Source: Eukaryota sp. GEM-RC1
Taxonomy: Eukaryota
Direction of reading: 5' to 3'
NCBI GenBank assembly: GCA_040285855.1
Contig: JAUFOQ010000010.1
Span: forward strand, 1,178,001 to 1,242,000
DNA: 64,000 nucleotides
The notes beneath the pieces were generated by a model that was not told the origin of the DNA, ran no database searches, and saw only the letters and a program-made list of their open reading frames with translations. Shown here one piece after another: positions 5,362 to 49,218 of the stretch. A program made the translations under genes and the position numbers. The stretch's first letter is position 1. Every line of letters starts with the position of its first letter.

Positions 5362-5551
5362 CTATTAGTATGTACTTTGATTTTCAGTCCACTAGCAACC
5401 CCCTTTATGCAGTGAACCTTAAAACATAACATGGCCTGCTCGTAGCACGCGTGCTTATATGTATTAATATTGTGTGTTGGCAATTTTTTTTGGGGTACAC
5501 TTCTAACCAGCAGATCAGAATTTGTGATTTGTCCTGTTTTGGTTTGCGTCG

Positions 5552-10426: not shown

Positions 10427-10470
10427 TGGAGGAAGTTGAATAGAGTTGAGGAGATTGAGCTACTTACAGT

Positions 10471-12895: not shown

Positions 12896-14260
12896 TCAAA
12901 CGAAGCAAATAGTCAACGAACCTTTAGACTGAGCTCTGGCGAGCTTAATGGAAGATGATAATGACATAAACAGACATGAAGAAGAAGAAAGAAAAATACT
13001 TTCTTTTCTACAAACATTGCTACAACTGTTACATACACAATGTGAAGTTTGAGATAATTTCTTGATTAACTCCTCCATCTTAAGAGGAAATTTTTTTTCA
13101 GGAGCAATAACGAGACAAACAGGAAATGGCCAATTGGATTCATTAGGGTAAGCAAAACCTTGTTCAATCAGAATGTCAAAATATCGGTTGGGTACACCCA
13201 GTTTCTCAAGGTGTTTCTTCCTAAGGGGTTTGCAGACTATGATTGACTCGTCTTTAAGGGGAATCCTCATTGGCTTACATAAAGTACCTTCGGGATGAGG
13301 GTAATCATTAAACACATCGGCAAAATTATGAACAGTATCAATGAGTTCCTGTGTTTTAGATTCAGGTAATTCAATGTGTGTACGTTTGTACTTAAGAATC
13401 TGTTTCAATTTCTAAATCTAGTATCTGCTTACAGTTTTTGGAAGCCATTAATTGAGACTGCAGAACTAATACGTTTAGGGTTTCCTTAACAAAGTTCGTG
13501 TCGAGGCAACGTATTATCTATATACAAAAGTTCGTTTGACCCAAAGTGATCAGTATGTCGCGTATTTTTGGCCCTAAGAAGATTTGAGTAGAAAGACTTC
13601 TTCTTTTAAGCAGAAACGACTTCTCTAAGATAACCGAAACTTCTTAAATTGACAACAGCTGATTGTTGAGAATTTTAGAACGTCAATCAGTGTGGACTGC
13701 TAAAAGAGCTCACTAAAAAAAGGGATCACTGATTCTTTCGGTTGAGACAGTTCCTGTATGCAGACAGTCGTGTTTCTGATATAATCTAATAGTTGCAGCT
13801 GATGAGGGTTGTTTCAAGACAGAAACATAGAGACCGAAGTTACACGATGCTTTAAGACATCATAGATTCAGATTCTTCCTGTCGCTTTGTTTTTAAAGTA
13901 GTGTTTTGCATTCATAGCTTTCGAACAACTGTATTTCTGACCTAAGAGCTTGTATTTATGCGTATTCCTGATTAACACATAAGATGTGTTTATCTGACAG
14001 AACGATTCTGTGTGGCTTAAAGCGACGGCAGGCCTTTCCACACATCCAATGCTGGAGTTTAAGGAAACTAGCTAAGAGAGGAGCAGCTCGAATTAGCGAA
14101 ACACAATCTGGATAACACTGTAACAAAGGAGACCCAGGAATCAGATCAGTTGTTTGTGGAAGGAAAGAAGAACCTCTGAGAACAAATAATGGTAATGATC
14201 AAAACAACTTCTGATCTAAGAAACAGTTCATGAAGGGATGTTCGGGTCCGTACAGCGGAA
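12896..14260 (-). mobile_element. Decayed Ty3/gypsy fragment (RT N-terminus, probable gag remnant); boundaries approximate
   Basis: IELPESK..DVFNDYPHPEGTLCKPMRIPL..FDILIEQGFA..PVCLV aligns with IELPKET..DVFGKPHPDGIKCKPMTIPF..FDDLIEDGFA..PIVLV of the intact element. Confidence 0.7.
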
Positions 14261-15156
14261 GAACAAGTCTCTTCATTATGTTTATTTGACCTGTTAAGAC
14301 TAAGTGATGTTTTTGAAGCTTTCCCTACTTTTAGTAATACAAATAAGTCATATTGAATGTGATTGTAATTGTTGGAAACAAATGTTGAAGACCTCTTTAG
14401 TTAGCTTAATATCATCTTTGTTTTCTCACACAATTTATAAGAATATGGACTTGAAAATTCTTGATATCGTAATTTCTTTAATAGCATTAGTTTTACATGG
14501 GTTTATTTTAGTCGAACAGAGTCAATGAAATTATTCAAAAATTATAATGTTTTGAAAAATATTGGTACTTTGTAGGTGTGTACATTCTTGTTTGAGTGAG
14601 AGAAGAAGGACGTTTTAATCAGCATTCACTTGACAACTCTTGGTCTTGTTAATTATAACAGCGTTGTTCTACTATTTTCGTCTAATTTTGAGACCAAACA
14701 AATGAAAATATATCACGAAACTTTGTGTTCAACAGTATTGTTCACAAATTATTTCAACAAATTTTACTTGCTGTTGAGTATTCTGGCTACATAAAATGGA
14801 GACACTGTCTGTATCTGAGTGAGACGAAGATCTAATGATTTTTAAAGTCATCATTGTATGCAAAAACACTATTGTCTGTAAATGGAAAACAACAAACCAG
14901 TTCAGCAGGTCTTTGTCTGAACATCACCTCCGTTTGCCATGTGTTCAACCATGAAAAATTAGTTCTTTTGTTTGAAAGCCAGAGTTTGAAGGTACTATTA
15001 CAGCATGTACTGTAAAAGTAGACATCCACACCAAACTTGTGGACCACTGAAACCCGTGTAATGTGAATGTGAATGTGAATGAAGCAGATTGACAAACACA
15101 ACACGGTGTGGTCTACAAGATTGATTCACCTCGGATTTCCCTTCACTCTACCTAAA

Positions 15157-16857
15157 ATGTCTAACCCCCAGTCTCCACTCAATAGTAGTCGTCCATCGGA
15201 TGATAGTGTTTCGGTTACTGACGTTGTTGAATGTAATAGAACATCTTCTAGTATCTCCTCTTCCCATCCTAGCGATAGTGCGTCATCCCCTTCGAGCTCC
15301 AATCTGCTGCACTTCCAACAGTCCCTACTTGTTCTCATTCACCTTCATTTTCTACGTCATATGTTAGCACCCCCTCTAGAATGGAATCAGTATGCTCCTC
15401 GTCGTTCTCTCAAAGATTTTATACTCTGGAAGAAAACCATACCTACATTCTTCAAGAAAGTTGGCTATGTCAGCCATCATTTCTTTGAATCCGCTCTACT
15501 CTCAACCAAGGTGTCCTTCGAATCAAAAACCTTTCATGCAACACCTGAAGATCTTCCTCAAATCTCTTCATTTGCTTCTTTCTTTGGAGCAGAGAAACAA
15601 TCAGTTTTCTTACACGTATACAGGAGTTTTAATGTTGACGAATTTCTTAGTTACTCTCATGTAATCTCAGGATTAAAATTGAAACTAAAGTACCACCGTG
15701 ACCTAGAGTTTCTTAACAACTCGGCCTTGTTATTTCCACGTCTTAAGCAACTTCGTGTTGCTGTCCGCGCTTCTATTTCTATGTCGCTTATAGAATTGTT
15801 GAAAGTTAATACTACGGTTACATTTGTTGTTCTGTATGGAAATTTAATTGAAGATGAAGGTGCTAGAGCTTTGGCAGATGCGTTAAAAGTTAATGTTACA
15901 GTTACAAGTATTAATCTTGGTGAAAACTCTATTTTTGATGAAGGTGCTAGAGCTTTGGCAGATGCGTTAAAAGTTAATGATACAGTTACAAGTATTAATC
16001 TAGGTGCCAACTTTATTGGCGATGAAGGTGCTAGAGCTTTGGCAGAGGTGTTAAAAGTTAATGATACATTTACAAGTATTAATCTAGGTGACAACTCTAT
16101 CACATTTGAAGGCGCTAGAGCTTTTGCAGATGCTTTAAAAGTTAATACTGTAGTTACAAATGTTGTTCTGTATGGAAACTCAATTGAAGATGAAGGTGCT
16201 AGAGCTTTGGCAGATGCGTTAAAAGTTAATGATACAGTTACAACTATTAATCTATTTGACAACTCTATTGGTGATGAAGGTGCTAAAGCTTTGGCAGATG
16301 CGTTAAAAGTTAATAGTACAGTTACAAGTATTGGTCTTGGTGTGAACTCTATTACATATGAGGGTGCTAGAGCTTTGGCAGATGCATTAAAGGTTAATAA
16401 TGTTGTTACTAATGTTGTTCTGTATGGAAACTCAATTGGACCTGAAGGTGCTAGAGCTTTGGCAGATGTGTTGAAAGTCAATACTGTAGTTACAAGTATT
16501 GATCTGGGTTCATGTCTTATTGGACCTGAAGGTGCTAGAGCTTTGGCAGATGTGTTGAAAGTCAATAATGTAGTTACAAGTATTGATCTGTGTTCAAACC
16601 ATATTGGACCTGAAGGCGCTAGAGCTTTGGCAGATGTGTTGAAAGTCAATACTATAATTACCAGTATTAATCTAGGTGACAACTCTATTGGTGATGAAGG
16701 TGCTGGAGCTTTGGCAGATTCGTTCAAAGTTAATGATACAGTTACAAGTATTAATCTTGGTGAGAACTCTATTACATATGAAGGTGCTGAAGCTTTGTCA
16801 GATGCGTTAAAAGTTAATAGCACAGTTAAAATAGCTGGAGTCCATCAACTCAATTGA
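15157..16857 (+). CDS. LRR family A protein (Ser-rich leader, 12 LRRs)
   Basis: ORF 15079-16857; start moved to ATG 15157 (MSNPQSP) by comparison with paralogues at 4941 and 35056. Confidence 0.9.
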   Translation: MSNPQSPLNSSRPSDDSVSVTDVVECNRTSSSISSSHPSDSASSPSSSNLLHFQQSLLVLIHLHFLRHMLAPPLEWNQYAPRRSLKDFILWKKTIPTFFKKVGYVSHHFFESALLSTKVSFESKTFHATPEDLPQISSFASFFGAEKQSVFLHVYRSFNVDEFLSYSHVISGLKLKLKYHRDLEFLNNSALLFPRLKQLRVAVRASISMSLIELLKVNTTVTFVVLYGNLIEDEGARALADALKVNVTVTSINLGENSIFDEGARALADALKVNDTVTSINLGANFIGDEGARALAEVLKVNDTFTSINLGDNSITFEGARAFADALKVNTVVTNVVLYGNSIEDEGARALADALKVNDTVTTINLFDNSIGDEGAKALADALKVNSTVTSIGLGVNSITYEGARALADALKVNNVVTNVVLYGNSIGPEGARALADVLKVNTVVTSIDLGSCLIGPEGARALADVLKVNNVVTSIDLCSNHIGPEGARALADVLKVNTIITSINLGDNSIGDEGAGALADSFKVNDTVTSINLGENSITYEGAEALSDALKVNSTVKIAGVHQLN

Positions 16858-17279: not shown

Positions 17280-20013
17280 CTTTTCTTCTTATTGAGTAAT
17301 TCATATTATATAAATAAACTAATGAGATGTACGATCTCTTGTTTTCATACGGTGTTGGTTGCGAGCTACAACAGGGGCTTGTGTTGTTGAGCTTTCCAGG
17401 CGGCGTCTAGTTTGGAATTAGCACGGGCAGTTTAATGACCTCTAGCTTGAGAAGGATCGTCGATATACTTTTTGCGGAAAGCGTAGTAAGCAGCGGTATT
17501 TTCTACAGAGCGGCCTTCCAGGTGGTAGTACCGTCTAGCCAGAGGACTACAGGTACTTGGGATCTTGAGGAGTGGTCAAGTCATGATCAATAAGTTTGTA
17601 GATGGCAACTTCTTCGGAGTTTGTTGCGCCAAAGGCTTGTAAAACGTTTTCAGAGTGGTTAGTGTGGCATTTCTTGACGTGGTAGAGATGAACATTTGAC
17701 AGAAATTCCTGTGATTAGATTACGGATTAGGCGATTCGAAGGGTGATAGAAAACGACCTCAACTAAGTTAGGGCCAGTCCACTTTCCATTGCTCTTGGAT
17801 GGGTGTTGACTAAGCTTTAAGACGAAACCACCTGATTGGATATCATCGATGAGCTTCTTGTTAGTGGCACATTTTCTGAATGAAAGGGATCTGCTGTTGA
17901 GATTAGAGGAGTTTTCTGCATCTTTCTATTTGTTTAGAATGGTTGAGGTCTTTTGTTTCCAGGACGTCCAATTAAGAGTTAGAGAATAAGTGGTCATCTA
18001 GCGTACAGTTCTGGATGATTTGAAGGGGAAGTTGTGTGGGGTTAGTTTTTGAACCGACAATTAGTTCGAAAGAAGTAAAATTTGTGATTGAACTAGAATG
18101 TAAGTACTGCAGCTAGAATGGGATTGGAGGTCGATAAGCAGACGGGGAAGAGTTTGCAGGACATCACGGTGTCTCCTTTCTACTAACCCGTTAGATTGAT
18201 CAAAATATGGGGCGAAGAACTTCTTTTCAATGTTACTGAGCTTTTGTTAACAGCGTTAGCAAATTCAGAGTTCGTTGTCACTTAGGATTTGCGACAAAAT
18301 GCCATATTTACCGACCCCGTTTCAGAGGATGGTGTAGTTTACTTCCTGGGCATTAGGGATTTTCAGAGGAACCAGTATTGTGAATCTGTAGAATGAGCAG
18401 ACGAATACTAGGATTTATTTGATGTTTGCTGAGTCCGGGGAGATCAAGCCAATTACGTCAGCGTATAGGCATTGGAAGGGGCGGTCTGACCAAAGATTTC
18501 CAGAGTAGGGGAGTTTCAATTTAGGAGCAGGCGCGGTCTTTTGATAAGGAATGCAATTTTTTACGTGAGATTTCAAAAGTCTTGTTTCTTGAAAGCGGTA
18601 TTAGAAGAACTAGGATTAGTAGTGAAGACTTATGGGGGAGCAGTCACACATTGGTCCAAGGCACTTTCGGCAGAGATGAACTTGCGGTGTTATTCATCTA
18701 GTCTAATATAGACTCCATTAGAGTTCAAAAGTCCAAGTTTGGTGAGAATGTCACAGCCAATTAGGGGGTTCGTTGCGGCCGGGCAGGATGGGCACAGTAG
18801 ATTTTAGGTGGACCTTTTTGGCTGGTTCGTCAAAGAAGAAGTTAAGGTAACCACAGGCAAGTCCAGGAGAATAAATCATAGATTGGTTGACTAAAGATTC
18901 GGGAATTTCGTTGTTCGTAATCTCCATCTTGGTGGCAGAGACATGGCCGTGTATGAAACATGAAGTTTTTGCAGGTGTAGCGATCGTGCTTTCTACAGGA
19001 ACACCATTAATAGTAAAATGAACTTTTAGAAAATTGTTAAAATATGAAAGTTTGGAAATGGAAGGGTTGAAGTAGAAGTTGTGGAAACTGCATTCACAGA
19101 ATTTCTTTGTGCATCATCAATATTCAAAATCTACAGGGAGACGTAAAGGGATGTGATCCACGAGCTGAGGTTCTGGAATGACAGTATTCACGGCGTTGAC
19201 TTGTTGTTGCCTAGTGGCACGAGTATTCGGACGGCGGTTGGTAGTGGGGTCTCTTGAGTTCCGACGATGAGGAGGCTGGTTTCTAGGAGCGTTTTGAAGG
19301 GCGTTTTTACGAGCGGGGGTCCAGCGAAGCGGCTTTGTTGAGCGGAGAACTGTGGAGTAGATAAAGGGCGATGATATCTGGTAGCGCAACAACTGGGGTC
19401 TAAAAAATCGGCTTTGACATGTCTAGGTTCTTAAAAGTACGCGAAAATGAGGCGAGAAGAGGGAAAAGGAGGTCCAAAGGAACGATCGGAATGGTTACGA
19501 GGGCGACGGTTATTGGGATGACGAGTGCTAGGAATTGGTTGAGATGAGAGATGTTCTTCAAGGGAGTAGGACAATTGAATGGTAGCAACAAGTTGGCGAG
19601 TTAGGCTGAGAACTTCTTCATGAAAAGAAATACATCTATTCTTGAAAGAATAAAAGACACGGGAATAGACAGAGGAAGGTGTGATTCATCGGATGAAGCA
19701 GGAAAGCAAGAGGTCTTCTTTGTAAATGAGATGAGAAATTTGTTTCTTGAGGTCTTGAAACATCAGACTGTAATCAGCTTGACGCATGGAGAATTTTCTG
19801 ATGGAAGCATTCATGGAGATCTTGGCAAGCAGTCGGTAGGTGAGAACTTCATCATGTATGAGAGAGTTGGAATAGATCCAGGCTAGGAGCTTTTCGTTGT
19901 CCTTTTCAGCTTCGGGGCAAAGGAGAGGAATGGCAGACATGAAGCGAGGACTGATGAACAGTCGGATAAAGGGCACGAGACATCTCATTTCTGGCGCAAT
20001 ACACATGCAAACA
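17280..20013 (-). mobile_element. Decayed, internally deleted Ty3/gypsy element (gag, protease, integrase remnants; RT not seen); boundaries approximate
   Basis: Minus-strand fragments SNGLVERRHRDV (~18190), LWSDRPFQCLYADVIG (~18470), INGVPVESTIA..TSCF (~18990), FIRLFISPRFMSAIPLLCP (gag-like); purine tract near 17281-17290; many stops. Confidence 0.75.
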
Positions 20014-21198
20014 TAGAGCTGTCAAACGGTTCGGCTCAAGCCGTAAACCGAACGACTTGAGCCAAACCATATCGAAATTTGGTTCGCCTTACTCAAATGG
20101 CTCAAGCCAAAGCCGAACAAGTTTGGATTTCTCCAAGCCAAACCATTCGGCTCAAGCCGCGGCTTGAACTTACTTCGAAGAAATGAACAAGTTGACCAAG
20201 TTCATTGCATACATCGATTCATAAGACGTACAAACAAATACAAAAAGGAATAGACAAACCGCTAGCACACTCATAATTGTGATCATTACTGATAAAATTG
20301 GTTCCAATCTTCAGAATCTTCCTTATATTAGTAACTCTTTTCCACAGTGAAGGAACGTCATTTCAGTGACCTTAAACTGAATCTTTCAATTTACAATTAC
20401 TCAAAAACTTCTTACAGCATATGTACAATGCTACCAAATTACTTTCAGGCTCGCAGTACATTACAGTTCTCATGATGACTAGTGTCTGAGACAAATTCAC
20501 ATCAAAGATACTCACCCCTTCTGCGTCATCACCTGAATGGCTGAAAAATGCTTGTAACGTTACATGTCTTTTGGTTAACAAGTATCATCCTTTTGTACTT
20601 TTGTGTATGATATGACAACTTTGATATCAATGTTCTTTGATCCACGTTTTGCTTGGATGAATATGGTAGCTACTATGAGAACTGAATCATACTTTCCGAC
20701 ATTTAAAGCAATGTACCATTTAAAGAAGGAAGATCATCTAAACGCTGGTCTAACGTACAGAACAATAGCATTGACGATGACGGTGCTGTTGATAACGATG
20801 TCATTGTTGTTGAAGACGAGAGTAATGTTGATGCTGTCTTTGATGACGATGATTCCGATAAGGAAGTGTTTTTAGAATCTCTTCAAAGTCAATTACAGCT
20901 ATGAATTAGTTGATTGTAGTGATGACGAAAACGATGAATATGCTCCTTCTTTAGATTCATAAGACCTAAAGGTGCTCATCAACCTTTGTACTATAAAATC
21001 AGTAGTTTTTGAGGAGTTTCTACAATAAAAACAACTATTCAAATTGATTTTTTTATCAAACCGAAAAAATATCGGTTTGGCTCGGCTTCAAGTGGACTTG
21101 TCACTTTGGTTCGGCTTACTCAAATGGTTCAAGCCAAAGCCGAACCAGTTTGGAATTTTACAAGCCAAACCATTCGGCTCAAGCCGTTGACAGCTCTA
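20014..21198. mobile_element. Non-autonomous hAT element
   Basis: TIR tagagctgtcaa / ttgacagctcta; exact 8-bp TSD tgcaaaca at 20006-20013 and 21199-21206; subterminal ggctcaagcc repeats at both ends. Confidence 0.92.
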
Positions 21199-25019: not shown

Positions 25020-26228
25020 GGAAAAATGTCAAAAACACTCATGTCCCAAATCTATATTTCATAACCACTCAAATGAAATTTGATATTACAAAAACACTCA
25101 TGAACCTTTTCTGATATACATACTTCACAAACAATGACTTTACTTATCTCCCTTCATGATTCACTCCGTCAATCTCCAACATACTTGCTCGGGCTTGAGA
25201 ATCAATCACGAGTCCCTCACAGCATCAAAGATTGTTGCAATTACCCCAGTTGTAACAGCAATTCAGCATGATCTACAAACTACAGCAGCCACCATTAGGA
25301 CAGTTGTTGCATCAAATGGAGCTACGGTTAACTATCAGAATGCTTACCGAGCTCAGAAGAAGATTAAAAAGGACTTGTATGGAAGCTTTGAAGAAGCTTA
25401 TGATGAAATTCAAGCTTACGTTCGGGAACTGCGTGCGTGCTACAATGATCCTATCATTGATCTAGATGTTACAGATGGCAGATAAGATGGCAGATAAGAT
25501 GGCGTAAAACTATGATAAAAATGGGGGAAAGACTAGAAAAGGCAAAGAAAATGCCCTGTATTGTAAAACAAGTGGCAGATGATGTAAGATCTTTATTAGG
25601 TAATGCAACAGCATTTACCATTGTTCCTGCTCAGAACCAACAGTTTGAGGTTCAGGGAGCAGATTCTGCTATTGTTGATGAGATGACGAAGAGCTGTTCA
25701 TGTGGAAAGTGGCAAGAAGACAAAGTCCCGTGTGTACATGCTGTTGCTGTTGCTGTGTTCATGAGAAAACCTCTAGAAGAGTTGATTGGTGAGGAATATC
25801 ATCAATCAACTCTGTTAAAATGCTATGGTACTTTGTTACCTGCTATTAGAGCCAGAAACAGCTGGATGGCTACTGAAGATGAAGTGCAAGAGCAAGTCGC
25901 GCTTCCAGTAGAAAAACGAGGAAGATGAAGGCCACGTACAAGAAGACTTACCAGCATTGGTGAACCAGAGATGAAGAAAGGACGAGGAAAGTACGGATGC
26001 AGTATCTGCAAGAAGAAGGGACATACAATGAAGACATGTCCCAACAAGTAGTAGATGGCATATCGATAGATAGATGAGATAATAGTAATCAAAATATAGT
26101 AAAACAATGACTTGGTTCTATTGATATCAATATTATAGTGGTCTAATGAGTGTTTTTTGTAATATCAAATTCCATTTGAGTGGTTATGAAATATAGATTT
26201 GGGACATGAGTGTTTTTGAATTTTACCC
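25020..26228 (+). mobile_element. Internally deleted Mutator/MULE transposon
   Basis: About 80-bp TIRs (gg..caaaaacactcatgtcccaaatctatatttcataaccactcaaatg); exact 9-bp TSD ttttattaa at 25011-25019 and 26229-26237; SWIM finger CSCGKWQEDKVPCVHA and knuckle CSICKKKGHTMKTC; DDE core missing. Confidence 0.93.
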
Positions 26229-27272: not shown

Positions 27273-27305
27273 CTCGAGTTTTAGTTTGTATTGTTATGTA
27301 CCTGT

Positions 27306-27427
27306 TGTTAGCACAGCAAGTGTTAACACGTGTTCTAGTAGTGAACTGTAGCATTATTTTACTTAGATTATTCTCTCCCCTTATAAAGGTACCGTCCTTT
27401 TCACTTTCAGCCTTAAACAAGGCATCA
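27306..27427 (+). repeat. 5' LTR (122 bp)
   Basis: tgttagcac...ggcatca; identical by eye to 33382-33503. Confidence 0.97.
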
Positions 27428-27470
27428 ATAGCTATTGGCCGTACACTAAGGCCTATCTAACCTAATCTGT

Positions 27471-30400
27471 ATGTCAACCAGACCCCAATCTTCACTTCCA
27501 GCATCACACCTTCTTGCTGATCAGGTACGCTTCGTAGCACCGAAGCTGTCCTCCCTCTCCACGAATGCCGTCGCCCGCTTCGTCCAGGAAGTCTCTCACT
27601 TCCTCCAGGCCTCCGAGCCTGACCAATCCCAAAGTATTCCTTTGACAGAACCAACTGTGTTCCCTTCCGTCTCCGCCTCCATCCCTTCAGCCGCTGAACG
27701 CTTAGCTGAAGTCGAACAGATGATCCATGCCGCCTTAAAAGAATCTCACCTTGAAGGTTTTGACCCTGAAACCTTTGCCGCCTACTGGTCCGCCGCCAAG
27801 AAAGTCACAATCGCCGCCAACGACTCCCCTTCTCCTAAACCCTCTTCAGGAACCTCCATGCCCAGGTTTCTCCAAGATGATGCGGATGCTCTACAACGCC
27901 ACTTAAAGACCTCTAACTTATCTCACTCCTCTTCCTTCCCTCATCAACTTGATGACTGTAATGGCCCTTCGTTCTTCGATGACCCTCCTGTCCCTGAAGA
28001 CTTCCATCGCTTTATCCTCCCAAACATAATCAGCCTAATTCGTATTATGTGTCCAACCGCTCTTTCTAGCCAGGAAAACCTGTGGACTTACCTCCTATCC
28101 ACCATAGCCGCCAAAGACGCCTCAGAAGCCAGAAGATTGCTGAACTCACTCTCAATGAAAACGCCAGGCCGAGAACCACTTACATTCTACATCCTCGACC
28201 TCCAGAAAGCTGCCCAGAGATGCAAGAACTTCCTGAACATCTCCAGGCCGAAACCGCTAATGGAAAGTTTCATTCAAGGCTTCAAGCCCTACGCTTTAAA
28301 AGCAAATTGATGGATGAGTTCAAGATGAACATCATCCAGGATATCGATTCACTAATATCCAGAACGATCGCGCTCAACGAAACTATAACTCATGAAGAAA
28401 CGAACCCCAGACTCCGTAATGCTCAAAGAAGAAGTGATTTTAACTCTAACCCCATCTTTAGAACCAGAACTCCATATCCAAATTCCAACCTCCGAAACAA
28501 AGAACCAGCCGGCGAAAAGAAAAGCTGCTCTTTCTGTAAGAAAGACGGCCACGTTATCGAAGATTGCTTCGATAAGTCGTGTAAGAAGTCGAAACATTAT
28601 GATCCATCAGCTCCGCAAACGAAGAAGCCGTACTCAAATCCAAGGCTTCCAAGACCAACATTTGGAAACGCTAAAAGATCAACTAGAAGCTCTAAAAACA
28701 ATTTTGTCGCTTCCAGAGAGCAATGCTCTGAAAGTCCTTACTCTACCACTATCTCAGATGACGAACCCATAGAGTTCGAGCTAGAACTCCCAAAATTTCT
28801 ATCAAACACCTTCCTTTTGACAAATCCAAGAACGTCAACGCCCAAAGCCTCTGCCGAAACAATGGATGATCCTCTCCCAGTGAGTGTTCCGCTGGAATTA
28901 AGCTCTTCCGTAAAGGAATTGAGCCCAATAACAGGATCGGGTTTCGACCCTTTTCTACCAGTGCGAGATACGCCACAATGGGATGGTGACTCCAAAGTTA
29001 ACGCAGTGGTCAAAGCCGAAGCCAAGTCGAATCAAGGACCTTCCAAGTTACTATCTCTCAAAGTCCTTATAAATAACTCTCCTTTCGAAGCACTGATCGA
29101 CAGCGCTTGTGAAACCTCTTGCTTCTCAGAGGACATCGCGAAAAAAGCCGGATGCTCAATTGCCGCCAGCAGATTCAAGTTCACACTAGCAAATGGTACC
29201 AACATCCAATCCCCTGGAACCGCTAATTGCATACTGAGCTTTGAATTTGATCGTATCCTCTCTCCTTTGGTACACCTGAAATGCCAGATCCCAATTATAC
29301 CAGGAGTAAACCAATTCCTAATTGGATGTGACTTGCTGTCAAGCCTCGGGCTACTAAAGAAAACTCCCTGATGATCAACTTGAACAAAGAACATTCAAAG
29401 ATCACAGGAGCCGAAGCCACCCTGGACCACCTAAGGGTCGACACACCTAGGAAAGGCCTCGTCGCTGCAACGTCCACAACTTTAGACGTATCAGAAAGTA
29501 GAATCGAGCTTCCCAAAGAAACCGAAGAGAAATTGCTGAAAATTCTAAACAAACACAAAGACGTGTTCGGAAAACCCCATCCTGATGGCATAAAATGTAA
29601 GCCAATGACTATCCCGTTTTACAACGAGGGCACAACCTGCAAGAAAGCCCCCAGAAACCTAAATCCTACTAAATTGAGGATCGCCAACGAGATCTTTGAT
29701 GACCTCATCGAAGACGGATTCGCCGAAGAAACCTCAACTGAGTCCAAATTTAGCTCTCCAATCGTCTTGGTAATCTATCCTGACGGTAAGAAACCCAGAT
29801 TAACAGGGAGACTACTCAGGAACTGGAGGCGTGAACGCTTCCACCAAGTCAATTGAAGCCCACCTACCAAAGATATCAGACGTATCTATCTTCCTCTCAA
29901 ATGCCAACTTCATTTGCACACTAGACCTTCCGAAAGCATTTTGGCAAGTCCCGCTAGACCGAGCTGATTACCAGAAAACTACACTAAGCATCCCAGGCCG
30001 TTCAATATTCTTCAAAAGAGCCGCCTTCGGACTAAAGAACGTCCCTGCGTTCTTCCAGAACTTGATGCAAGACATCTTCTCCATGCCTAATGTCTTTATT
30101 TACATGGACGATGTAATCATCGCTGCTTGCACAGAAGAAGAACTGCTTTCCACGTTAAATGCCATACTAACGAAAGCAGCAGAACATAGAGTCCGCTTCG
30201 CCCTCCGAAAATGTGCATTCCTGACCTCAGAAAGCGCCATAAAGATCCTTGGAGCAATTTTCCATAAAAAGAAAAGATCTATAGACCCAGACAGAGTCAA
30301 ATGCATCATCAAGCTGCCTATTCCCTCAACGATAGGCGAGCTGCGCTCCTTTAACGGCTCAATTAACTATATCCGAGACTGGATACCTCACCTGTCGAAC

Positions 30401-33331
30401 TGCCTTCAACCTTTAACGGCCCTAACTAAAAAAGACGAGTCAGATCGCCGATCAGTTAAATCCAAATGGACAAGCTCGCACACGAACTGCTTCCCTAACC
30501 ATCAAGAATCTAATTTGTAACGCCTGCAATCTAGCTCTCCCCGACGCAGACGCAAAAATTGTAATCTCAACAGACGCCTCTGATAAAGCTATTAGCGGAG
30601 TAGTTTGGAAGAAGCTTGACAAGACCCCTACGACCTCTCCGCTAGAAGAACAAAAATTAGAACCAATCAGTTTTTTCTCGAAGACCTTGACGGATAGCCA
30701 AATGAACTGGCCAATAATCCAGAAGGAACTCTTCGCGATAATTTGCACCCTGAACCAGCCCATCATGGCCAACTTCTTGATGACTCGGCAGCTAACGATT
30801 TTCTGCGACCACAAGAACATCGTCTACCTGATTAACCAGCCAGAACGAAATCGGATCGTAACCCGCTGGATTCCCTTTCTATCTAACTTCTCCTTCCAAA
30901 TCATCCACGTCGAAGGTCCAAACAACGTATTCGCCGACCTCCTTTCACGTCTCACGCCCGCTAACCCCAGTTTAGAATCAGAATTACCTGAAACCTCAAC
31001 ATGCTTTAGCTTATTTTCAGTAGAACTCTACGACACTGAATACTACTTTGACGAAACCCCAACAAAAACCGAATGCCCCAAGTGTGGAGAACGCATGCCC
31101 TACTTAACCATGCCCGACCACATACCCTGTGAAGGCCCATACTTCGCATGCAGAAACTGCCTCAACAAACTAGAACCCCATGAAGTCTATAACGATGATG
31201 AACGCAGAGCCCTGCTTCACTTGTACCCGAAAGAAGACACGCCTATCAAAGACTACTGCGGCATCTTCCAGCTAGACAAAGCAGGTCCTCGGAAATACAT
31301 TGAACGCAGAGACGACCATATCAAGGAATTATGCTTCCGCTTCGTAAAGCACAAAGGTCTCATCAGAAGCCTAGAAAAGAAGAACTCTTCACTAAGGAAA
31401 CTAGTAGAACCTCCTGCCAAAATCAAAATAATTGAACCAGAATCGAAAATTCCATGTGCCCACTGCAATCACGGAACCACCGACTTGGAACTATGTGCCA
31501 GCCACCACCAAGTAACAACATATCAAGAACGACTGGTCTGCCACAGCTGCAAGAAATATACAACCGATCAGTTGCTGACAGAAGCCAAAGAAAAACTAAA
31601 GAAAAGAAAAACTAAAAACTCCCACGAGAAGCTCCTATCTTACGATGGCACAGGCCCCCTCGTATGCTATTCTTCCACAGATGAATCCCCTTATGATTCA
31701 AAAGAATCAGAAAACTCCGACTCTGATACCCCTTTACCCAAAAATGCTTCGCACTTCGCTGGTTTGGTCAGCCTCCTAAGAAACCAATCAGAATCATTCC
31801 AGAATGGCTCAAAGAAGAAATAGAGAAAGCCCGCAAAGAAAAAGAAGTCATCGACATAAGCTCTGATGAATATGAAGAAGACCCCTTACCTTCAATCACC
31901 TACTCAGTAAGAACAGTCGAAACTCAAGACACAACCTGGCTTGACACCCTGCGCACCCAACAGCAACTAGAACTAAAAGACTCCAGTGACAGATGCTCCT
32001 GGGACGCCGAAGCTCAAATGTTTGTCACCCCTGATAACAAAATCCTCGTTCCTGAATCTCTAAGAAAAGAGGTAATGTGGAACTTTCACGGATATGCTCA
32101 CTGTGGTCACCCTGCCTTGTGGCAATGTCTCAAAGACATAAAAAACAGCTGCTACTCTTGGCCAACATTAGAAACTGATTTAAAAAATCACATCGACTGT
32201 TGCCACTCATGTCAGAAGACAGCCCCAGCCCCCAAGACGAAAACCCAATCAACCGGATCCCTGTTTGCAATGAAACCGTTCGGCAATATCCACGCCGACA
32301 CTATAGGACCCTGGCCCACAGACAACCTTGGAAACAGGTACGTGCTAGTATTCGTAGACGCCTTTACGAGATACACCATCTTATGTCCCTCAGACAAAAT
32401 CTCCGCTACAAACTCAGCATACTGTCTTATCAACTCGGTATGCGCCAACTTCGGCATACCCGACATGATCCACTCAGATAACGGACCCGAGTTTTGTAAC
32501 GCCACCTTTAAAGCATTATGTGCCTTCCTGAACATAACTAACTCCTTCTCGCTCCCTCACCACCATCAAAGTAATGGCCTGGTTGAGCGAAGAAATCGTG
32601 AAATCAACCAAACACTGGAGAGATTTCTCCTAGACCTGAACGACTTCCAAAACTGGTCGACCCATCTTCCTATGGTGCAGTTGATGATCAACAACCAGCG
32701 CCACTCTGTAACCCGATGCACCCCATGGGAACTGATGTTTGGATCGCCAATCGATCCTAGAAAACCCGCTTCTGACCTGCTAGACCAACTAACCGCCAAG
32801 CCACTTAGAGAAACAGGCAACGTGTTTGTCGATGCCCTCTCTGCAAGAACCACCTACTTGAAAGGAAAGTGGGAAGAAGCAGCCAGAAACCAGCAAAGCC
32901 ATCTGGACAAACTTAGACCTAACTCAAAACCGGTCAAGAACCCCTTTGTCATTGGTGACCTCGTGCTTCGAAAGAACGACCAACCTCAGCGCCTGCATGG
33001 CTCATGGTTAGGCCCTGTTCAAGTGCTGGAAAGCTCTCCCGACTCCACGAAAGTTAAAATTCTAAACTTCGTCACAGGCAACGAACTCACAACCTCCAGC
33101 TTGCTCCTTCGCCTATTCATGGCCCACTCATCCAACAAGGAGTACCTGACCGCCATCGCCGCTATGGACCAACAAGAGTCTATACTTGTGAAGGTGCCTG
33201 ACATCGATCACAGATCTAACAGAGTCCATGTAGAATGGATAGACGGCTCTACATCTATGGAACCTCTCGATGAAATCCGCAAGACCACCGCATGGTCCAA
33301 GGCCAAGCACCTCCACGATGATCCCCTTTGA
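27471..33331 (+). CDS. Gag-Pol polyprotein, probably one ORF broken by about five single-base indels
   Basis: Knuckle CSFCKKDGHVIEDC, protease LIDSAC, RT LDLPKAFWQ and YMDD, RH TDASD..KELFA..CDHKN..ADLLSR, IN HHCC and HADT..SDNGPEF..NGLVER, WLGPV, chromo-like VHVEWIDGSTSMEPL. Confidence 0.9.
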
Positions 33332-33366
33332 AAACACTCGCTGCCCTTAAAGCCATGAGAGGCTTC

Positions 33367-33378
33367 AAGGAAGAAGAG
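33367..33378 (+). other. Polypurine tract
   Basis: aaggaagaagag, 3 nt before the 3' LTR. Confidence 0.85.
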
Positions 33379-33381
33379 CAT

Positions 33382-33503
33382 TGTTAGCACAGCAAGTGTT
33401 AACACGTGTTCTAGTAGTGAACTGTAGCATTATTTTACTTAGATTATTCTCTCCCCTTATAAAGGTACCGTCCTTTTCACTTTCAGCCTTAAACAAGGCA
33501 TCA
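33382..33503 (+). repeat. 3' LTR (122 bp)
   Basis: Identical to 27306-27427. Confidence 0.97.
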
Positions 33504-33691
33504 CTGTCAAAAACATTGATGACTCTTTACTCAATACTCAATACATTAAATCATAGCTACAAGATGTAAATGCAACAAAGGACCGCAGAACTCTGATTGA
33601 AAGTTTATTCAATGTTTCAATTTGGTACTGGTTAACCTGTGATACTGGGTTTTGACTCAATCAGAGAGTATAACTAACCGATTAAGTTGAT

Positions 33692-35056
33692 CTAAATGTC
33701 TAGTTTAACAACGCCAAAGAATTTTGATGTCTCTGCTAGAAGTCTAGCACCTTCATCTCCAATGGGATTATAATTCAGATTAACAGTTGTAATTGTGGAA
33801 TTGACCTTCAACACATCTGCTAAAATTCTAGCACCTTCATCTCCAATAGAGTTGTTCTCCAGCACAAGACTTTCCAATGTACTATTAACTTTTAACGCTT
33901 CTGCCAAAGCTCGAACACCTTCATCTCCAATAGATGTTCTCCTAATGTCGAGACTTTCCAATGTACTATTAACTTTTAACGCTTCTGCCAAAGCTCGAAC
34001 ACCTTCATCTCCAATGGAGTTTCTTCTCAGATCGATACTCGTAACTGAAGTATTAACTTTTAACGCATCTGCCAAAGCTCTAGCACCATCATCTCCAATA
34101 GAGTTGTAGCTCAGATTAACAATTGTAACTACATTATTATCTATTAACACCTGTGCCAAAGCTCTAGTACCATCATCCCCAATAGAGTTGTAACTCAGAC
34201 AAATATTTTTAACTGCCGTATTAACTTTCAACGCCTCTTCCAAAGCTCTAGCACCTTCAAGTCCAATAGAGTTGCTCGCCAGGTTAACAATTGTAACTGT
34301 AGTATTGACTTTTAATGCATCTGCTAAAGTTCGAGCACCTTCATCCCCAATATGGTTGGAGTCCAGATCAATACTGGTAATTGTAACATTAAATTTCAAT
34401 AATTCGATAAATGCCATACAAAGACAACGCTGCACAAACACATGAAGCTGTTTAAGACGTGGAAAAAACAAGGAAGACTTGTTCAGAAACTCCAAGTCAT
34501 TGTCATTCTTTAATTCCAATTCCAATCCTGAAATTACATTAGAATAATTGACAAATTTTTCAACATCAAAGATCCCATGTACATGCAAAAAAACAGACCG
34601 TAACTCTGCTCCGAAGAAAGAAGAAAATGAACAGAGTTGAGGAAGGCCCTTTGGAACGACATGAAACGTGTTTGTTTGGAAAAACACTTTCGTTGCTAGT
34701 AAAGAGGATTCAAAGAAGTGATGGCTTACATAGCCAAGTTTTTTGAAGAATTTGGAAAGATCTCTCTTTAAGTTAAGGAGAGCACGACAAGGATCGTCAC
34801 GATCATAATGAGAAGAATGTTCTAACAAATGATTGAGGAAATGGAGGTGGATCAAAACTAGAAGAGACTGTTGTAAGCGTAAGATACTGGGAGGAGAATG
34901 AGAGGACGGTGGAGCGGTCGATGTATCAGACCTAAGATTCGAAGAGGAGATACTAGAAGAGGATCCGTCACAATCAACACTGTCAAGAATTGAAACGGTT
35001 TGATCTAATGAAAGACTACGATTCAAGAGACGTTCAGATGAGTTATGAAATGACAT
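33692..35056 (-). CDS. LRR family A protein (Ser-rich leader, 8 LRRs)
   Basis: 454-aa ORF with family core and 28-aa LRRs. Confidence 0.9.
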   Translation of the reverse strand: MSFHNSSERLLNRSLSLDQTVSILDSVDCDGSSSSISSSNLRSDTSTAPPSSHSPPSILRLQQSLLVLIHLHFLNHLLEHSSHYDRDDPCRALLNLKRDLSKFFKKLGYVSHHFFESSLLATKVFFQTNTFHVVPKGLPQLCSFSSFFGAELRSVFLHVHGIFDVEKFVNYSNVISGLELELKNDNDLEFLNKSSLFFPRLKQLHVFVQRCLCMAFIELLKFNVTITSIDLDSNHIGDEGARTLADALKVNTTVTIVNLASNSIGLEGARALEEALKVNTAVKNICLSYNSIGDDGTRALAQVLIDNNVVTIVNLSYNSIGDDGARALADALKVNTSVTSIDLRRNSIGDEGVRALAEALKVNSTLESLDIRRTSIGDEGVRALAEALKVNSTLESLVLENNSIGDEGARILADVLKVNSTITTVNLNYNPIGDEGARLLAETSKFFGVVKLDI

Positions 35057-35366
35057 GTTTTGTTGGCAAAGATTCTATATGTAGTTTGGGTCACTTCCAG
35101 ATTTCACAAACCATGATGTTCTAACGTTACGTGTTGGAATTCTGGTGCCTCGTGGTGTTTTTTGTTGGAGTAATTCAGTGATGATATCAATCGCTTCTTC
35201 TTTCTCCATGTTTATCGCTTAAACTTCAAATGCAAAGTACTCCACTGATATTGGTCTCCATTCAGTCTATTCCTTGTTGTTGGCTGTAGTAACCGCGCAA
35301 CTAGAGTTGTGTCTCTTTAAATCCCACCCTCACTCAATCTACATTTACCTGGTACTCTGTTCTCAA

Positions 35367-35691: not shown

Positions 35692-36690
35692 TCAAAACCC
35701 TGCTCTAACATCTCTAACATACATCAACTTCATTGTCAATGTTTTCATCACCTGAAGAATCAGTCCAATCAGTGTCACTCCACTCACTAGTGGATCATCT
35801 AGTGCCATCATCATTCCACAAGCTATCGTTCCACTGGTGGTATAGTAATTCAGGAACTTCATTATTAGGAACTTCCTCTGCTTTTCTTGGACGCTTACCT
35901 TTTGACCTTCTCTGAATCGTCTTTTCTGAGGTCTACCTCTTGGTACAGAGACTTTTGGCGGTTCCAAACAATTGACGGTTCTGTATCCGTAAGACTCAAC
36001 TCTTGTTTCAAATTGACTGAAACTATTCCCATTAGATAGGTTCTAAGGTAGTTATCGCTGAAATAGAAAGCTTCACCTCCATCAACAATGTTCTTCTTCA
36101 TAGCTAATATGGCTGCAACAGCATGTTCACAAGGATAACCAGTTTCTTGCCATCTTTTACACGTACACACTCTTTGTGAAACATTGACCATGAAGGTCTC
36201 CAAAGTGGAGTCTTCTTTTACAACCACTTCTACCGTTACATCACGAGTCACTTTGTTAGTACTCAGTGATCTTGCCTTTAAGGCAGAAGCTTTAACCAAA
36301 GACCAGAGCCTTGAAACTACTGCTGTTTCAAAGCTTTCGGCATCTGCAAGTCGGGTTTCATACCAACTAGTTAATTTATCACATATAGAATTGATCATGC
36401 GCACTATTGGCAATCCTCTTGTTCCAAGAAGCCATGCATTTAGACTTTCAATTAAGTTTGAGGTCAACCGTAACGCATACCCCGTACACCTTTGAGGACT
36501 TTCCACGAATTTCCTCCATCACACTGTCAAACTCTCTTACTAAATCTCTTTTAAATTGCTCTTGCTGCGTTCCAAATTAGTTTACTATATTTTGCACCCA
36601 TATTTTTGCATAAGTGACGTACACAGTATGCATGGAAGCTTGCTGGATAGACTTGCAAAAGTCACTTTTCTCTATCTGACACAAAAGTCA
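35692..36690 (-). pseudogene. MULE transposase remnant
   Basis: TSNLIESLNAWL, SWIM CTCKRWQETGYPCEHAVAA, PRGRPQKRR; frameshifted; TIRs not found. Confidence 0.8.
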
Positions 36691-36694: not shown

Positions 36695-37260
36695 TGTTGC
36701 CAGAAGGCACTTGGAAACAAGGAGTGACAAGAATGTTTATTTTTTAGATACACGTCTGATAACACTAAAGACACGTCACTATACGTAGAAACACTACTTT
36801 TTCTTCTTTTGAAGAGCAGTACGAGGAGGAAGCTTTACCTTGTGAGTCTTAACGTAGAGTTTGCGCTTTTGTTGTCGCGCACATGAGCCAAAGGTTCCCA
36901 TTCTTCTACACCATGAGCAAATCTAACTAGAAACCAAAGGTCGTCTCCTGTTCAAGAATGTGCGAGAATGTCGTCCACGACAAACTCTTCTAGGTCAGTT
37001 GCAGCTAAAGATTGGAGGCGAGAAGAGGGATAGTGTCCTGAGATATGGACAGGGATAAGTTGATATGACGAGACAGTTAAAACTTGATCCATAACGAGAT
37101 GTCTCATCTTGTAGCCTGAAGATCCTACCTTTTCTTCGATGAAAAATGGTCCTCCGCAACCATGGAGTTTTGATTTCTTAGGAAACGTTCTAAAAACCAA
37201 GTCACCAATTTCGAACTTCCTGAATTCCTGTTTCTTAGCAGCGTCTAACTCTTTCTTGTT
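36695..37260 (-). mobile_element. 3' end of a gypsy chromovirus (integrase tail, chromodomain, PPT, ~99-bp LTR at 36695-36793)
   Basis: KLHG..GPF; EEFVVDDILAHS*..WFLVRF..EEWEPLAHV; minus-strand gaagaaaaagtag followed by tgttt...gcaaca. Confidence 0.75.
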
Positions 37261-37289
37261 CTGACTATGCAGCGCAGCTTCATTGACAT

Positions 37290-37950
37290 CTTGAACGCTG
37301 TTTGTATTCTGGTCGAGATTGGCTTTGTTAATGTTGTGTGGATTAACTTTTACCGAAAACGTGATCTCTTTTTAATGGTTAGACTTGTTTGTATATAGAC
37401 ACATAATGATTGACATACATACATTTAATGCTCATTTTAGAACTTAAATGATGAGTGATGTTTCTTCTCTTAACTGGGTATAGCTTTTTTGCTCACTGAT
37501 GTCGTCATCAAACTTAAGATGTTGAACATAGCTTTGTTCAATTCTGTCAATAAATTGCAAATTTCATACATTTTGTCAGTTATTGTTCACGTTACATTGA
37601 AGTTAAAATCAGTTTCATAATAGATTGAAGACTGTAAGGTTTATTATCAACAAGAATTGAATTGCAACATTTAAGCTTTCGATACGTCGTTATCATTCTA
37701 TCATTCTATCTATCATGGCAAAAGATCAGAAGTGTAGATGCGATCAAAAGTAAACTATAAAACAGGCTCATTATAGAGAGGGGTTTCGTAAGATATCAAC
37801 TCTATTTCATAGTTTGCTTCAGTTACAGTGTTCTACTTTTACTTTTTGATTTGTGATCTTTTCCGATCTTTTATTTAAGATCATTTAGGAAATAGAATGA
37901 ATACCATGTTGTATTTCCTGTCAAAGGTAATCTTATGTTGATCCATTGTT
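37290..37950. repeat. Diverged inverted copy of about 46318-46952
   Basis: gacacataatgattgacatacatacatttaatgctcattttagaacttaaatga matches the reverse complement near 46795-46845; collinear matches continue for about 650 bp. Confidence 0.85.
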
Positions 37951-42338: not shown

Positions 42339-43674
42339 CTAATATTTTACTTCAACAACTCTATTGACTTTCAGCGCCTCTGCCAAAGCTCTAGCACCTT
42401 CATCTCCAATAGAGTTAGAACTCAGTTCGATAGTTGTAATTGTTGTGTTAACTTTTAACGCCTCTGCCAAAGCTCTAGCACCTTCATCTCCAATAGCGTT
42501 AGACCTCAGATAAACACATGTAACTGTAGTATTAACTTTCAACGCCTCTGCCAAAGCTCTAGCACCATCATTTCTAATACAGTTGTAACTCATATTAACA
42601 AGAGTAACTGTATCATTAACTTTCAACGCCTCTGCCAAAGCTCTAGCACCTTCATCTCCAATATAGTTAGCCTGTAGATCAATAACAGTAACTGTAGCAT
42701 TAACTTTCAACGCGTCTGTCAATGCTCTGACATCTTCATCTCCAATAGAGTTATAACTGAGAGTAACAATTGTAATTGTAGCGTTGGTTTTTAACAATTC
42801 AATGAAAGCAATAAAAATAGAAGAATGAACACGCACATCAAGTTGCTTAAGACGTGGAAAGAACAAGGAAGACTTGTTGAGAAACTCCAAGTCATTGTGA
42901 TTCTCTAATTCCAATTCTAATCCAGAAATTACATTATCATAACTAAGAAATTCTTCAACTTTAAAGCTATCGTACACGTGTAAGAAAACAGATTGAATCT
43001 CTGCCCCAAAAAAAAGAAGCAAATGAAGAGAGTTGAGGAAGGTCATCAGGAATGACATGAAACGTGTTTGTTTGAAAAAGCACTTTGGTTGCTAGTAAAG
43101 CAGATTCGAAGAAATAATGACTTACATAACTAACTTTCTTAAAGACTGGTAATAAATCTTTTTTCAACTTGTAGAGATCGCCGCATCTATATTCATGACA
43201 TTCAAGAATGGACTTGAGCATACTACTCAGCATATGAAAATGAATGAGAATCAGCAAGGACTGTTGAAAGTGTATGCTGTGAGTAGATTGGAACGAGGTC
43301 GTCAAAGGGAGAAGTTCAAGTGGTTTGGGTTCAGTATTAGGTTTAGAAGAGAAGGTACTAGTATTCAATGGTTTAACAGAAGACTGAGAAGCAGAGGCTA
43401 CATGGGTACCTGGCATATTACTAGGAGAACGAACTTCTTTAACGGGAAGTGAGGAGAAAGCTTGAATAATGTCAGCTGCTGTTGCACTGTATGCAACGGT
43501 GGCGATTTCGGCAGTGAAGGGAGCTTCGAAGGGAAGCTCATATTCTTCGTGGGATGGACGTGGATTAGAAACGTGTGGTTCTCCACCAGTTCTAGAACTG
43601 AAGGAACGAAGAGGAGTATCGCACCCTTCAAGGGAAGATGTAACATCAGTACTGTTTCCAGTGTTAGGTTCCAT
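42339..43674 (-). CDS. LRR family A protein with internally deleted RRM, 5 LRRs; one apparent +1 frameshift
   Basis: ORFs 42967-43707 and 42339-43058 join at the A8 run 43008-43015 (FASFFGAE in paralogues); ATG 43674 (MEPNT) matches MEHNT / MKHNT. Confidence 0.85.
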
Positions 43675-45479
43675 CACAGTACACTCTGCAAAAAGGAGGC
43701 AAAACAAATTATAATTGCACTCATTGACCTCTTTTATCTAAAAAAAAGTGAGTCAATAACCGCAGAACAAAGGGTTTTACTGTATTACGAAAACATTGCA
43801 GTTAATAACCCAAAAACCCTTTACAATTTGTAAAAACCTACCAGCAAAAAAACTGGTTATATGTCTTCTTTAATGTGACGTTTTGTACTTAAAATGAGAG
43901 TAACCAAGCAACTATCAATTAGTACTAATTATTGAATTGAAGATGTATACTTGTCAAGTCTTCGACTGTGGACACTGTGTATTTTACCACTTTAAATTTG
44001 AGTCAATGAATCACACAGGGCAGGGGCTCTATAAGAATTGTAAAATAGGTAAGGAACATTCACATTGTTGTCTAATAACAGTTCTTTGTTTGGATACCAG
44101 CCGTCAGAGGCATGTAAGAATTGGGACCATAAGGCACTGTCAAGATCATAAAACATAGGAAAATATCTTGCAGTCAGAAACTCTCGAGTGAAGCGGTTGT
44201 TTCGTCTAACGTGTTTCGAATAAATATGGCCAGCATAAATCTGGCCAGCAGATAAAATCTGCCGATAGAGTACTACAATTGTGCATCAGACCACTGCTTC
44301 AATTTCACACGTGTAGAGAAGAATTCCATGTAAAAAACACCGAGCTGGTGAAGTCCGAAAAATAAATAAAGATCAATTCGTCCCCTTTTGAACAGTAAGA
44401 TGTTTCCTTTCATGAACATTGCCTAGTTGTTGATCAAATTTCATGATAGAGGCGTTGCTATGATAACACATGTTTATGATATAGAAAAGATGCTGAAGGA
44501 TAAAACATCACTATCTACTATATTGGAAGCGAAGCTAACGTTTAAAATAAAGGTCATCAAAAAGACTTTCTGGGTCGTAATAAGGATGTTTTTGGGAACC
44601 AAAGAAAAACAATGTGACCAAAAATGACGGGAAGGAGGAGTCGAATCTATGGGTTAATAACATAATACGAACTAAAAGTAACTGCGTTGCGAAATGACCA
44701 GACACATCACATTAGCAGATATTTTTAGTGTGTATTAATCTATGTAATATATGTTTCTAGATATTGAATATATTAAACATCATCTAAGTGCCTACCACTA
44801 TGAATCTTCGCAAGCTAAGTTTCCTATTACATTGTTGTGTTATATGTTCTTGATCGATAAAGTGATAGCTATAAACAGACGCTATTGATTTGATAAATTC
44901 CTGCATTAGTTTAAAGTTGAGAGTGATGGTTTGCATCTTGTTACGTTGACTTATCTACGACAACCATATAAAATCATCAATAAATGTTATTTACAGTGAT
45001 GGGTGTTATTTTAATGATGACAAGTTTAAGGTTTTTCAGTTTATTACATTTATAAATCACTGTATTTTGTCTAAGGGATTCTGTATCGGTATCAGTGTGA
45101 AGTATCAGTGGTAAGCAGCTTTAAAGCAGTTGTCGTAGACTTATTGATTGGAACAGAAAGTTAGTGAAAGCATTATTAAGATATCCGACATCTTTTGCCA
45201 CAAGGTATAGATCCAAAGTAAATATATTCTATTTACCAGATTTAAGACCCACCTAGACGCCTTTTATTTACTCTTACAAATACAACCTATCATCAGACCC
45301 ACCTAGACTGTACTAATCCAAATTTAATTTCTTGCCGACGTCTCTCGATATTCCTTCTTCACTAAACTATGAATTGTCCTCTTACACGATCCAGCAACAG
45401 TGTTGCAGTTGCCAACAGTCACTATTTATATATATAGTGATTCTGTTGGCGTGGATATTGCTTCGTTTTCCTTTTTCCA

Positions 45480-48679: not shown

Positions 48680-49218
48680 TGGAAGTGAAATTATGCCACT
48701 AAAAAACACACCACAAATGATAACACTAGATAATTAATTACAGATTGTTACTAAACAAAAAAAATTCGGAGTAATGAAATTTGCTTTCACCACTAACTTA
48801 AATTAGTAATTTATATTTGAAAATCATCACCTTCTACTCTAAAACAAACATAAGTAACGGGAGTAGAATGGCCATTGAGAGTGAGAATGTAAGTTCCCTT
48901 GTAAGCTGACCACACTCTAAAAACACCAGTAACAACAGCTATAGAGTATTTGATGATTCCAATGTTTAGTTCATGATCTTCATCTTCCTATCTATCAATA
49001 CATTCACATAGACAGACTGCTTCATCAACAACTCGAGTGAAAATAGAAGATTCGTAGAACCATGATCCAATGACTTAAGAAAAGTGAACAGAAGGCGGAG
49101 GACATGACTGAGACTGAGATTTAGAGAGAGACATTGCTAGTTGCATGACATTTATTTAGGAAAAGAGTCTTTCAAAAGAGTTTAATGAGACATTTCATTA
49201 TCTTGAAGATCTTCCTTG

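Follow-up and report, generated by a model that had tools for sequence, protein, structure and literature searches.

Extra domains within the Pol polyprotein of LTR retrotransposons are already known. The Tat, Archon and Chronos elements carry an additional domain (aRNH) beside their native RNase H, which has been gained independently several times (PMC5348765), and other Pol passengers, i.e. chromodomains, a DnaQ-like exonuclease, an SF1 helicase or DNA methylases, are non-essential, some of them having been proposed to act on silencing (PMC6338049). A further accessory protein, the CERV of the Cer1 element of C. elegans, is restricted to its lineage, diverges fast, is needed for gRNA export and combines a zipper, a KRKK stretch and a Cys-rich finger (PMC10309623). 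The locus described here belongs to the genome of Eukaryota sp. GEM-RC1, one of the Skoliomonas lines (GEM-RC1, TZLM3-RCL) of free-living anaerobic soda-lake flagellates (PMC11316075). It lies in a stretch of 64,000 nucleotides (contig JAUFOQ010000010.1, positions 1,178,001 to 1,242,000; hereafter the window), and holds an insert of no known family between RNase H (RH) and integrase (IN). In the literature searched, i.e. the main texts of openly accessible papers, neither this insert nor any skoliomonad retrotransposon was found described, and the word "retrotransposon" has 0 occurrences in the available part of the Skoliomonas genome paper. That literature likewise yielded no Cys/His cargo without a family whose slot has four unrelated occupants.

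A complete gypsy element with a long RH-IN linker

The insert is part of a complete Ty3/gypsy LTR retrotransposon spanning positions 27306-33503 of the forward strand (Table 1). The Pfam matches follow the gypsy order PR-RT-RH-IN, the two LTRs are identical and a 4-bp target-site duplication lies on either side; the element is young. There is no obvious tRNA primer site 3' of the 5' LTR (27428-27450), and ARAGORN predicted 0 tRNA genes in the window.

Table 1. Features of the element and of its insert, in positions of the window.
Feature	Position	Strand	Remarks
5' LTR	27306..27427	+	122 bp, TG...CA, equals 3' LTR; CTGT upstream at 27302-27305
gag (CCHC knuckle) and aspartic protease	27450..29371	+	two frames; gag-asp_proteas E=3e-5
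Reverse transcriptase	29332..30520	+	two frames; RVT_1 E=1e-20
RNase H, C-terminal end ADLLSR	30543..30950	+	RT_RNaseH E=6e-21
Cargo insert, ~320-329 codons, no known family	30951..31936	+	frame change at ~31735
TCFSL, candidate protease site	30999..31013	+	KTFSL in the sister family's 76-aa spacer (about 2% by background rate)
Cys/His cluster 1, CxxC-x11-HxxC-x6-CxxC-x6-H, predicted zinc binding	31074..31181	+	ligands same in 3/3 copies
Amphipathic helix, possible short coiled coil	31296..31403	+	8/12 a/d hydrophobic; helix 122-140 in low-confidence model
Cys/His cluster 2, CxxC-x9-CxxHH-x10-CxxC, predicted zinc binding	31455..31550	+	ligands same in 3/3 copies
Basic patch KEKLKKRKTKNSH, putatively NLS-like	31587..31625	+	sequence
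Acidic Ser-rich spacer, VCYSS to KCFAL, includes frame change	31662..31756	+	sequence
SIM-like motif VIDISSDEYEED, hhXh core and Ser/acidic tail	31847..31882	+	integrase frame
ITYSV, candidate protease site before integrase	31895..31909	+	sequence, position only
Integrase: H2C2, core, C-terminal part	31937..33166	+	rve E=1e-14; Integrase_H2C2 E=4e-10
Degenerate chromodomain-like segment	33167..33328	+	profile of 22 rows
Polypurine tract	33367..33378	+	sequence
3' LTR	33382..33503	+	then CTGT at 33504-33507

A solo LTR of the same family, 91% identical and with its own 4-bp duplication (ATAC), occupies 61586-61707 on the reverse strand, and a decayed second gypsy element related to P0014/P0010 lies at ~17300-20000, also on the reverse strand, its protease nearly abutting the integrase region and RT, RH and cargo being absent; an 82-bp direct repeat pair (20078-20159 and 21105-21186, 93% identical) adjoins it. 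Gypsy fragments of other families were found at 13061-13351, 36895-37371 and 62102-62463 (an RT start and integrase C-terminal parts), and two frames, 25138-25928 and 35895-36518, resemble what we take to be MULE-type transposase fragments with SWIM-like CxCxxW...CxH motifs. A cluster of paralogous LRR genes with 28-aa repeats and a common N-terminal region extends through the window (3547-7175, 9152-10459, 15079-16857, 33692-35074, 42339-43737 and 49207-51228), the element itself standing between a B-box gene on one side and one of the LRR genes on the other.

The sequence-only reading had assigned the element to the chromoviruses, a class assignment that stays unproven, the element having only a degenerate chromodomain-like segment. 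The segment aligns across 22 rows (that of P0003 being misaligned), and its profile, run against 15 outgroup proteins, recovers the C-terminal region of one of the three with a Pfam chromodomain at E=2.7e-4 and a second at 0.056; on the other side, Pfam Chromo gave no match at E<=5 in the window's own C-terminus (E=0.12 in P0014) and no PDB chromodomain matched the window's copy. Chromodomains have been gained more than once in LTR elements and also occur outside chromoviruses (PMC5348765), so that the label is a tentative one.

The same reading had proposed an insert of about 330 residues, with Cys/His clusters, coil, basic patch and acidic spacers, in an RH-IN linker of abnormal length. These were confirmed and found where claimed, the coil as an amphipathic helix that may form a short coiled coil: the end of RNase H and the first integrase helix (WLDTLRTQQ, 31937) are about 329 codons apart, compared with 76 in the sister family. 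Its claim of a frame continuing to the integrase holds for the 261 open codons that follow ADLLSR, a stop-free stretch reached in 1 of 10,000 base shuffles (mean 12.5 stops per shuffle), and fails beyond them. The frame changes at ~31735, in a C/A homopolymer stretch, the original one meeting a stop at 31823, and the final ~60 residues (KCFAL, VIDISSD, ITYSV) are read in the integrase frame. Altogether the gag-pol region changes frame five times, at short homopolymer runs or next to them. In the related copy P0002 the reading keeps to the integrase frame over three residues (FTQ) and then runs into the same off-frame tail as the window copy; both copies covering ~31735 end in this common tail, P0001 ends earlier, and cargo and integrase in a single frame were seen in none. 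The window copy and P0002 shift frame at different neighbouring runs, which fits independent one-base errors. Nanopore reads corrected with Illumina data underlie the Skoliomonas assemblies (PMC11316075), and the frame changes may plausibly stem from homopolymer errors that were left uncorrected in a repeat.

Conservation, composition and searches

Two further copies of the insert, 97% and 95% identical to that of the window, are present in Skoliomonas, and all listed Cys/His ligands of cluster 1 (C42-x2-C45-x11-H57-x2-C60-x6-C67-x2-C70-x6-H77) and cluster 2 (C169-x2-C172-x9-C182-x2-H185H186-x10-C197-x2-C200) are intact in the three. P0001 differs from the window at 6 of 235 insert residues (D/E three times, E/Q, A/G and L/M), all conservative, random missense changes being as conservative with P 0.0008-0.0014, and at 3 of 75 residues in RNase H. 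In P0002, 11 of 261 residues are changed and the spectrum of the changes looks neutral (P about 0.94), which would suit a copy in decay. The insert is constrained as a protein, a conclusion drawn from the one window/P0001 pair. Synonymous codon use scored +0.30 bits/codon in the insert, +0.29 in RH and +0.31 in IN, as against -0.08 to -0.48 in all ten host frames, and the in-frame score of the insert exceeds those of its other two frames (0.12 and 0.19), part of this difference being strand composition. This element-like codon use argues that the insert was not recently taken from the host, and a recently captured host gene was rejected on this ground and for want of a host homologue. The insert is therefore a long-resident, constrained part of Pol and not a fresh host capture.

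No host donor gene appeared among 1.84 billion representatives, where the insert retrieved a single match, from its own family; the same was true of a second search (1 of 744 candidates). Pattern searches gave 46 matches in metagenome contigs and 22 in viral contigs, none of which was confirmed as a relative, phages gave no match and the Atlas no usable one for the whole insert or cluster 1. Pfam, PHROG and PDB returned no significant match, no Pfam or PHROG score being near its cut-off, so that the insert corresponds to no described gypsy domain in these collections. AlphaFold models built on single sequences reached pLDDT values of 32.8 and 55.5 at low alignment depth and were uninformative on the fold, as was Foldseek with these low-confidence models (0 matches at E<=0.001). 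An internal repeat between clusters 1 and 2 was not supported. An aRNH was discarded as well, no RNase H match falling within the insert.

A captured TRAF- or UBZ-like protein had been suggested as the origin of the insert, of which an accessory protein is what stands. The UBZ of Pol eta has CxxC-x11-H ligands with an x3 last spacing; cluster 1 has CxxC-x11-H and ends in x2-C. Its best PDB sequence match is indeed the Pol eta UBZ (E=0.57, with 8 identities over an alignment of 21 residues), and Pfam zf_UBZ ranks second of 15 weak zinc-finger matches (E=0.008, 16.3 bits vs a cut-off of 25.6), RING, C2H2 and ribbon models scoring like it on this cluster. The UBZ binds ubiquitin via its C-terminal helix and D652 (PMC11482926). 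Cluster 1 has Pro at the D652 position and Pro/Gly in the would-be ubiquitin-binding helix, on which UBZ membership was rejected, and judged from these residues a UBZ-like working of the cluster is unlikely. TRAF-type fingers are tandem CxxC-x11/12-H-x3-C units joined by 6 residues. In the insert, the second unit has its His after 6 residues and lacks a closing Cys, which speaks against TRAF membership, and zf-TRAF was not among the 15 matches to the insert at E<=10.

The motifs said to punctuate the insert (TCFSL, VCYSS, KCFAL and ITYSV) do exist, four in its 319 aa and none in the other 1620 aa, but their repetition is no rarer than chance. In a shuffle test that left out the fourth letter, an equally rare three-letter pattern with four matches was found in 500 of 500 shuffles, and in 480 of 500 if two positions had to be chemically coherent; the argument from repeated motifs to protease sites was dropped accordingly. 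Slim independent support comes from a KTFSL in the short spacer of the sister family (about 2% at a background rate of 8 in 31,235 aa) and from the hydrophobic motifs, many of them with Cys, that by eye lie on both sides of the other cargos. No published source for Ty3 cleavage-site sequences was found. Cargo release by the protease is the expectation from general Pol processing.

A variable slot between RNase H and integrase

At the protein level, close relatives come only from the NCBI gene models for Eukaryota sp. GEM-RC1, TZLM1-RC and TZLM3-RCL, and at the slot these models were read as proteins, not as DNA. An integrase search retrieved 35 long proteins, 20 of them skoliomonad, with RH and IN placeable in 17 of the latter. 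The RH-IN spacer is 39-59 aa long in 11 of these 17 Pols and 119-557 aa in the remaining 6, compared with 0-84 aa in outgroups (11 of 15 measurable). The nearest sister family (P0038, P0040-P0042), found by an RH search and 60-63% identical in RH, has a spacer of 76 aa in its four members.

Three further cargo types occupy long spacers: 352 acidic residues with one CxxC-x30-CxxC in P0006; 374 acidic residues in P0014/P0003, the end of which is common to P0010 of another species (E=5e-11); and ~556 residues, aromatic- and His-rich, in P0012, P0013, P0017, P0018, P0019, P0043 and P0044, of which P0013 and P0018 fall short of this length, perhaps through clipping of their gene models. In TZLM1-RC (P0012, P0019 and P0044) this last cargo is aromatic, His/Cys-rich, without Pfam match and present in several divergent copies; it may be a folded protein of its own. 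No alignment of the other cargos with the window insert rises above shuffles (28-217 of 300 reach the score), and no mutual homology is detectable among the four types; a likeness of cluster 1 to the CxxC-x30-CxxC of P0006 was set aside, its score being reached by 183 of 1000 local shuffles.

A tree of RT, RH and IN (LG+G4, 26 rows, one or few per family, leaving out P0003, P0007, P0017, P0020, P0038, P0040, P0042, P0043 and nine outgroups) groups the window with the sister family (support 97/91) and places the skoliomonad elements in their own clade (100/100) against six outgroups. On this tree long and short spacers require at least 2 changes, whose order as gain or loss is not given, the skoliomonad base being poorly resolved, and a single clade of cargo carriers is rejected (p-AU 0.00013). 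A single change of spacer state, suggested by an integrase-only tree, was overturned once the sister family had been added. The RH-IN junction is a variable cargo slot, holding unrelated cargos or a short spacer among relatives.

Near the end of the window's cargo, a VIDI core is followed by a Ser/acidic tail (SSDEYEED) that fits the SIM pattern, with SUMO binding as a prediction. The SIM consensus consists of a hydrophobic hhXh/hXhh core with a Ser/acidic flank, e.g. IIVLSDSD in Daxx, and is degenerate, so that many matches are not real (PMC8616421). The pattern had been spotted by eye before any flank threshold was fixed, which makes the following P values optimistic. Three flank rules were applied to this first pattern; the second pattern allows P or M at the first position. 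With the middle rule the window, P0014, P0003, P0012 and P0019 match, and P0006, P0013, P0017, P0018, P0043, P0044 and all 12 short spacers do not; P0013, P0017, P0043 and P0044 fail under all three versions. Elsewhere the flank rules give 0-2 matches in the other parts of these polyproteins (27,016 aa; 2 with the middle rule) and 0 in 5,096 aa of host protein; the middle rule gives 2 in 20,780 aa of outgroups and the loosest also matches 1 of the 12 short spacers. The second pattern adds P0013 and P0017, loses P0003, leaves P0044 and P0018 without match and has 6 background matches in 27,006 aa. Overall, a SIM-like motif is found in three of the four cargo types, that of P0006 being without it, and in two separate lineages it stands 22-38 aa before the cargo end. 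The window motif alone has P 0.02-0.08 over all tests and 0.04-0.06 in local shuffles, which give the cargo types jointly P 0.004-0.006 (post hoc). In the sister group, Giardia possesses SUMO together with Ubc9 and SP-RING ligases (PMC7029713).

Possible roles of the cargo and known systems

We favour, at a probability of roughly 40%, an element-encoded cargo of ~320 residues that would be cut out by the protease and serve in the nucleus as a zinc-binding adaptor, its docking sites being SUMO-marked chromatin or silencing proteins. An assembly error or decay would account for the frame change at ~31735, the cargo being made in line with Pol, packaged as part of it together with RT and integrase and presumably carried into the nucleus with the cDNA. 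The hydrophobic motifs at both ends may be the protease sites, the two Cys/His clusters are predicted to bind zinc and a nucleic-acid or protein partner, and the basic patch could import the cargo. Its C-terminal SIM-like motif would bind SUMO and either steer integration or shield the new copy from silencing.

A broader proposal, which we regard as somewhat doubtful, is that the RH-IN junction works as a plug-in cassette for counter-defence proteins of fast turnover, released by the protease and repeatedly SIM-bearing. If so, retrotransposons of a metamonad would have in it an arms-race locus directed at SUMO-based silencing, much like the accessory-gene slots of complex viruses.

Two other functions have to be weighed against the SUMO-docking adaptor, both of them unlikely in our judgement. 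The cargo could be a released, nuclear regulator of the CERV or Rev kind, using its Cys clusters and basic patch to bind element RNA and aid the export or packaging of this RNA, and its helix, two Cys clusters and KKRK do resemble the parts of CERV. Against this, no sequence similarity was seen, sister families have no cargo at the slot, and a regulator embedded in Pol would come late and sparse, whereas a spliced mRNA encodes CERV, whose zipper is also found in GAG and which has M and G domains, SUMO going unmentioned in the account of it (PMC10309623). Alternatively, the insert could stay joined to integrase or RT-RH, uncleaved, and as such an extension contact DNA or the intasome and adjust the choice of target, without a dedicated partner among host proteins and with the acidic motif as a spacer. 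This would agree with cleavage motifs not above chance, with the degenerate chromodomain-like part of the element and with the weak likeness of cluster 2 to DNA-binding Dof and C2H2 fingers (E 0.014-0.57); these matches, however, are Cys-driven and under the cut-offs, the relatives show hydrophobic motifs on both sides of their cargos, and four unrelated cargos in one slot suit modular accessory proteins better.

Non-functional filler (an old nested fragment or an expanded linker) or an assembly artefact is very improbable: the lack of homologues outside the family, the neutral-looking changes of P0002 and the five frame changes of the window copy are what it would lead one to expect, but there are three copies, two of them on different records, with ligands intact in all, conservative changes in P0001 and the top codon score in the reading frame. 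Least probable of all is a captured host ubiquitin binder of TRAF or UBZ type countering ubiquitin-based defence, for which the sub-threshold UBZ matches and a CxxC-x11-H...x6-CxxC spacing reminiscent of the TRAF consensus are outweighed by the Pro at D652, the missing donor and codon use that is not host-like.

The known extras at the RH-adjacent place of Pol are recognisable enzymes, and four unrelated family-less proteins or nothing at this place in one protist genus point to a rapid turnover of accessory genes in LTR elements. The slot furthermore offers natural pairs with and without cargo for the study of cargo function. Should the SIM be real, transposon control in metamonads would be tied to SUMO; should it not be, the insert still stands as an ORFan domain with good support, its gypsy element being an ordinary one.

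Among the systems compared, the UBZ of DNA polymerase eta is alike in its CxxC-x11-H spacing, the cargo being without D652 and the binding helix. The SIMs of Daxx, PML and HSV-1 ICP0 have a hydrophobic core and then a Ser/acidic tail, as in VIDISSDEYEED, and ICP0 disarms silencing based on SUMO by combining its SIMs with a zinc finger (PMC8616421); the cargo has no RING, and only the 12-residue motif, with its predicted binding, is common to both. The other Pol passengers have known folds and donors, whereas the cargo of the window has neither. In the aRNH elements the cargo is always a recognisable enzyme, while that of the window is Cys/His-rich and of no family, and in the skoliomonads four unrelated cargos share one slot within one host genus.
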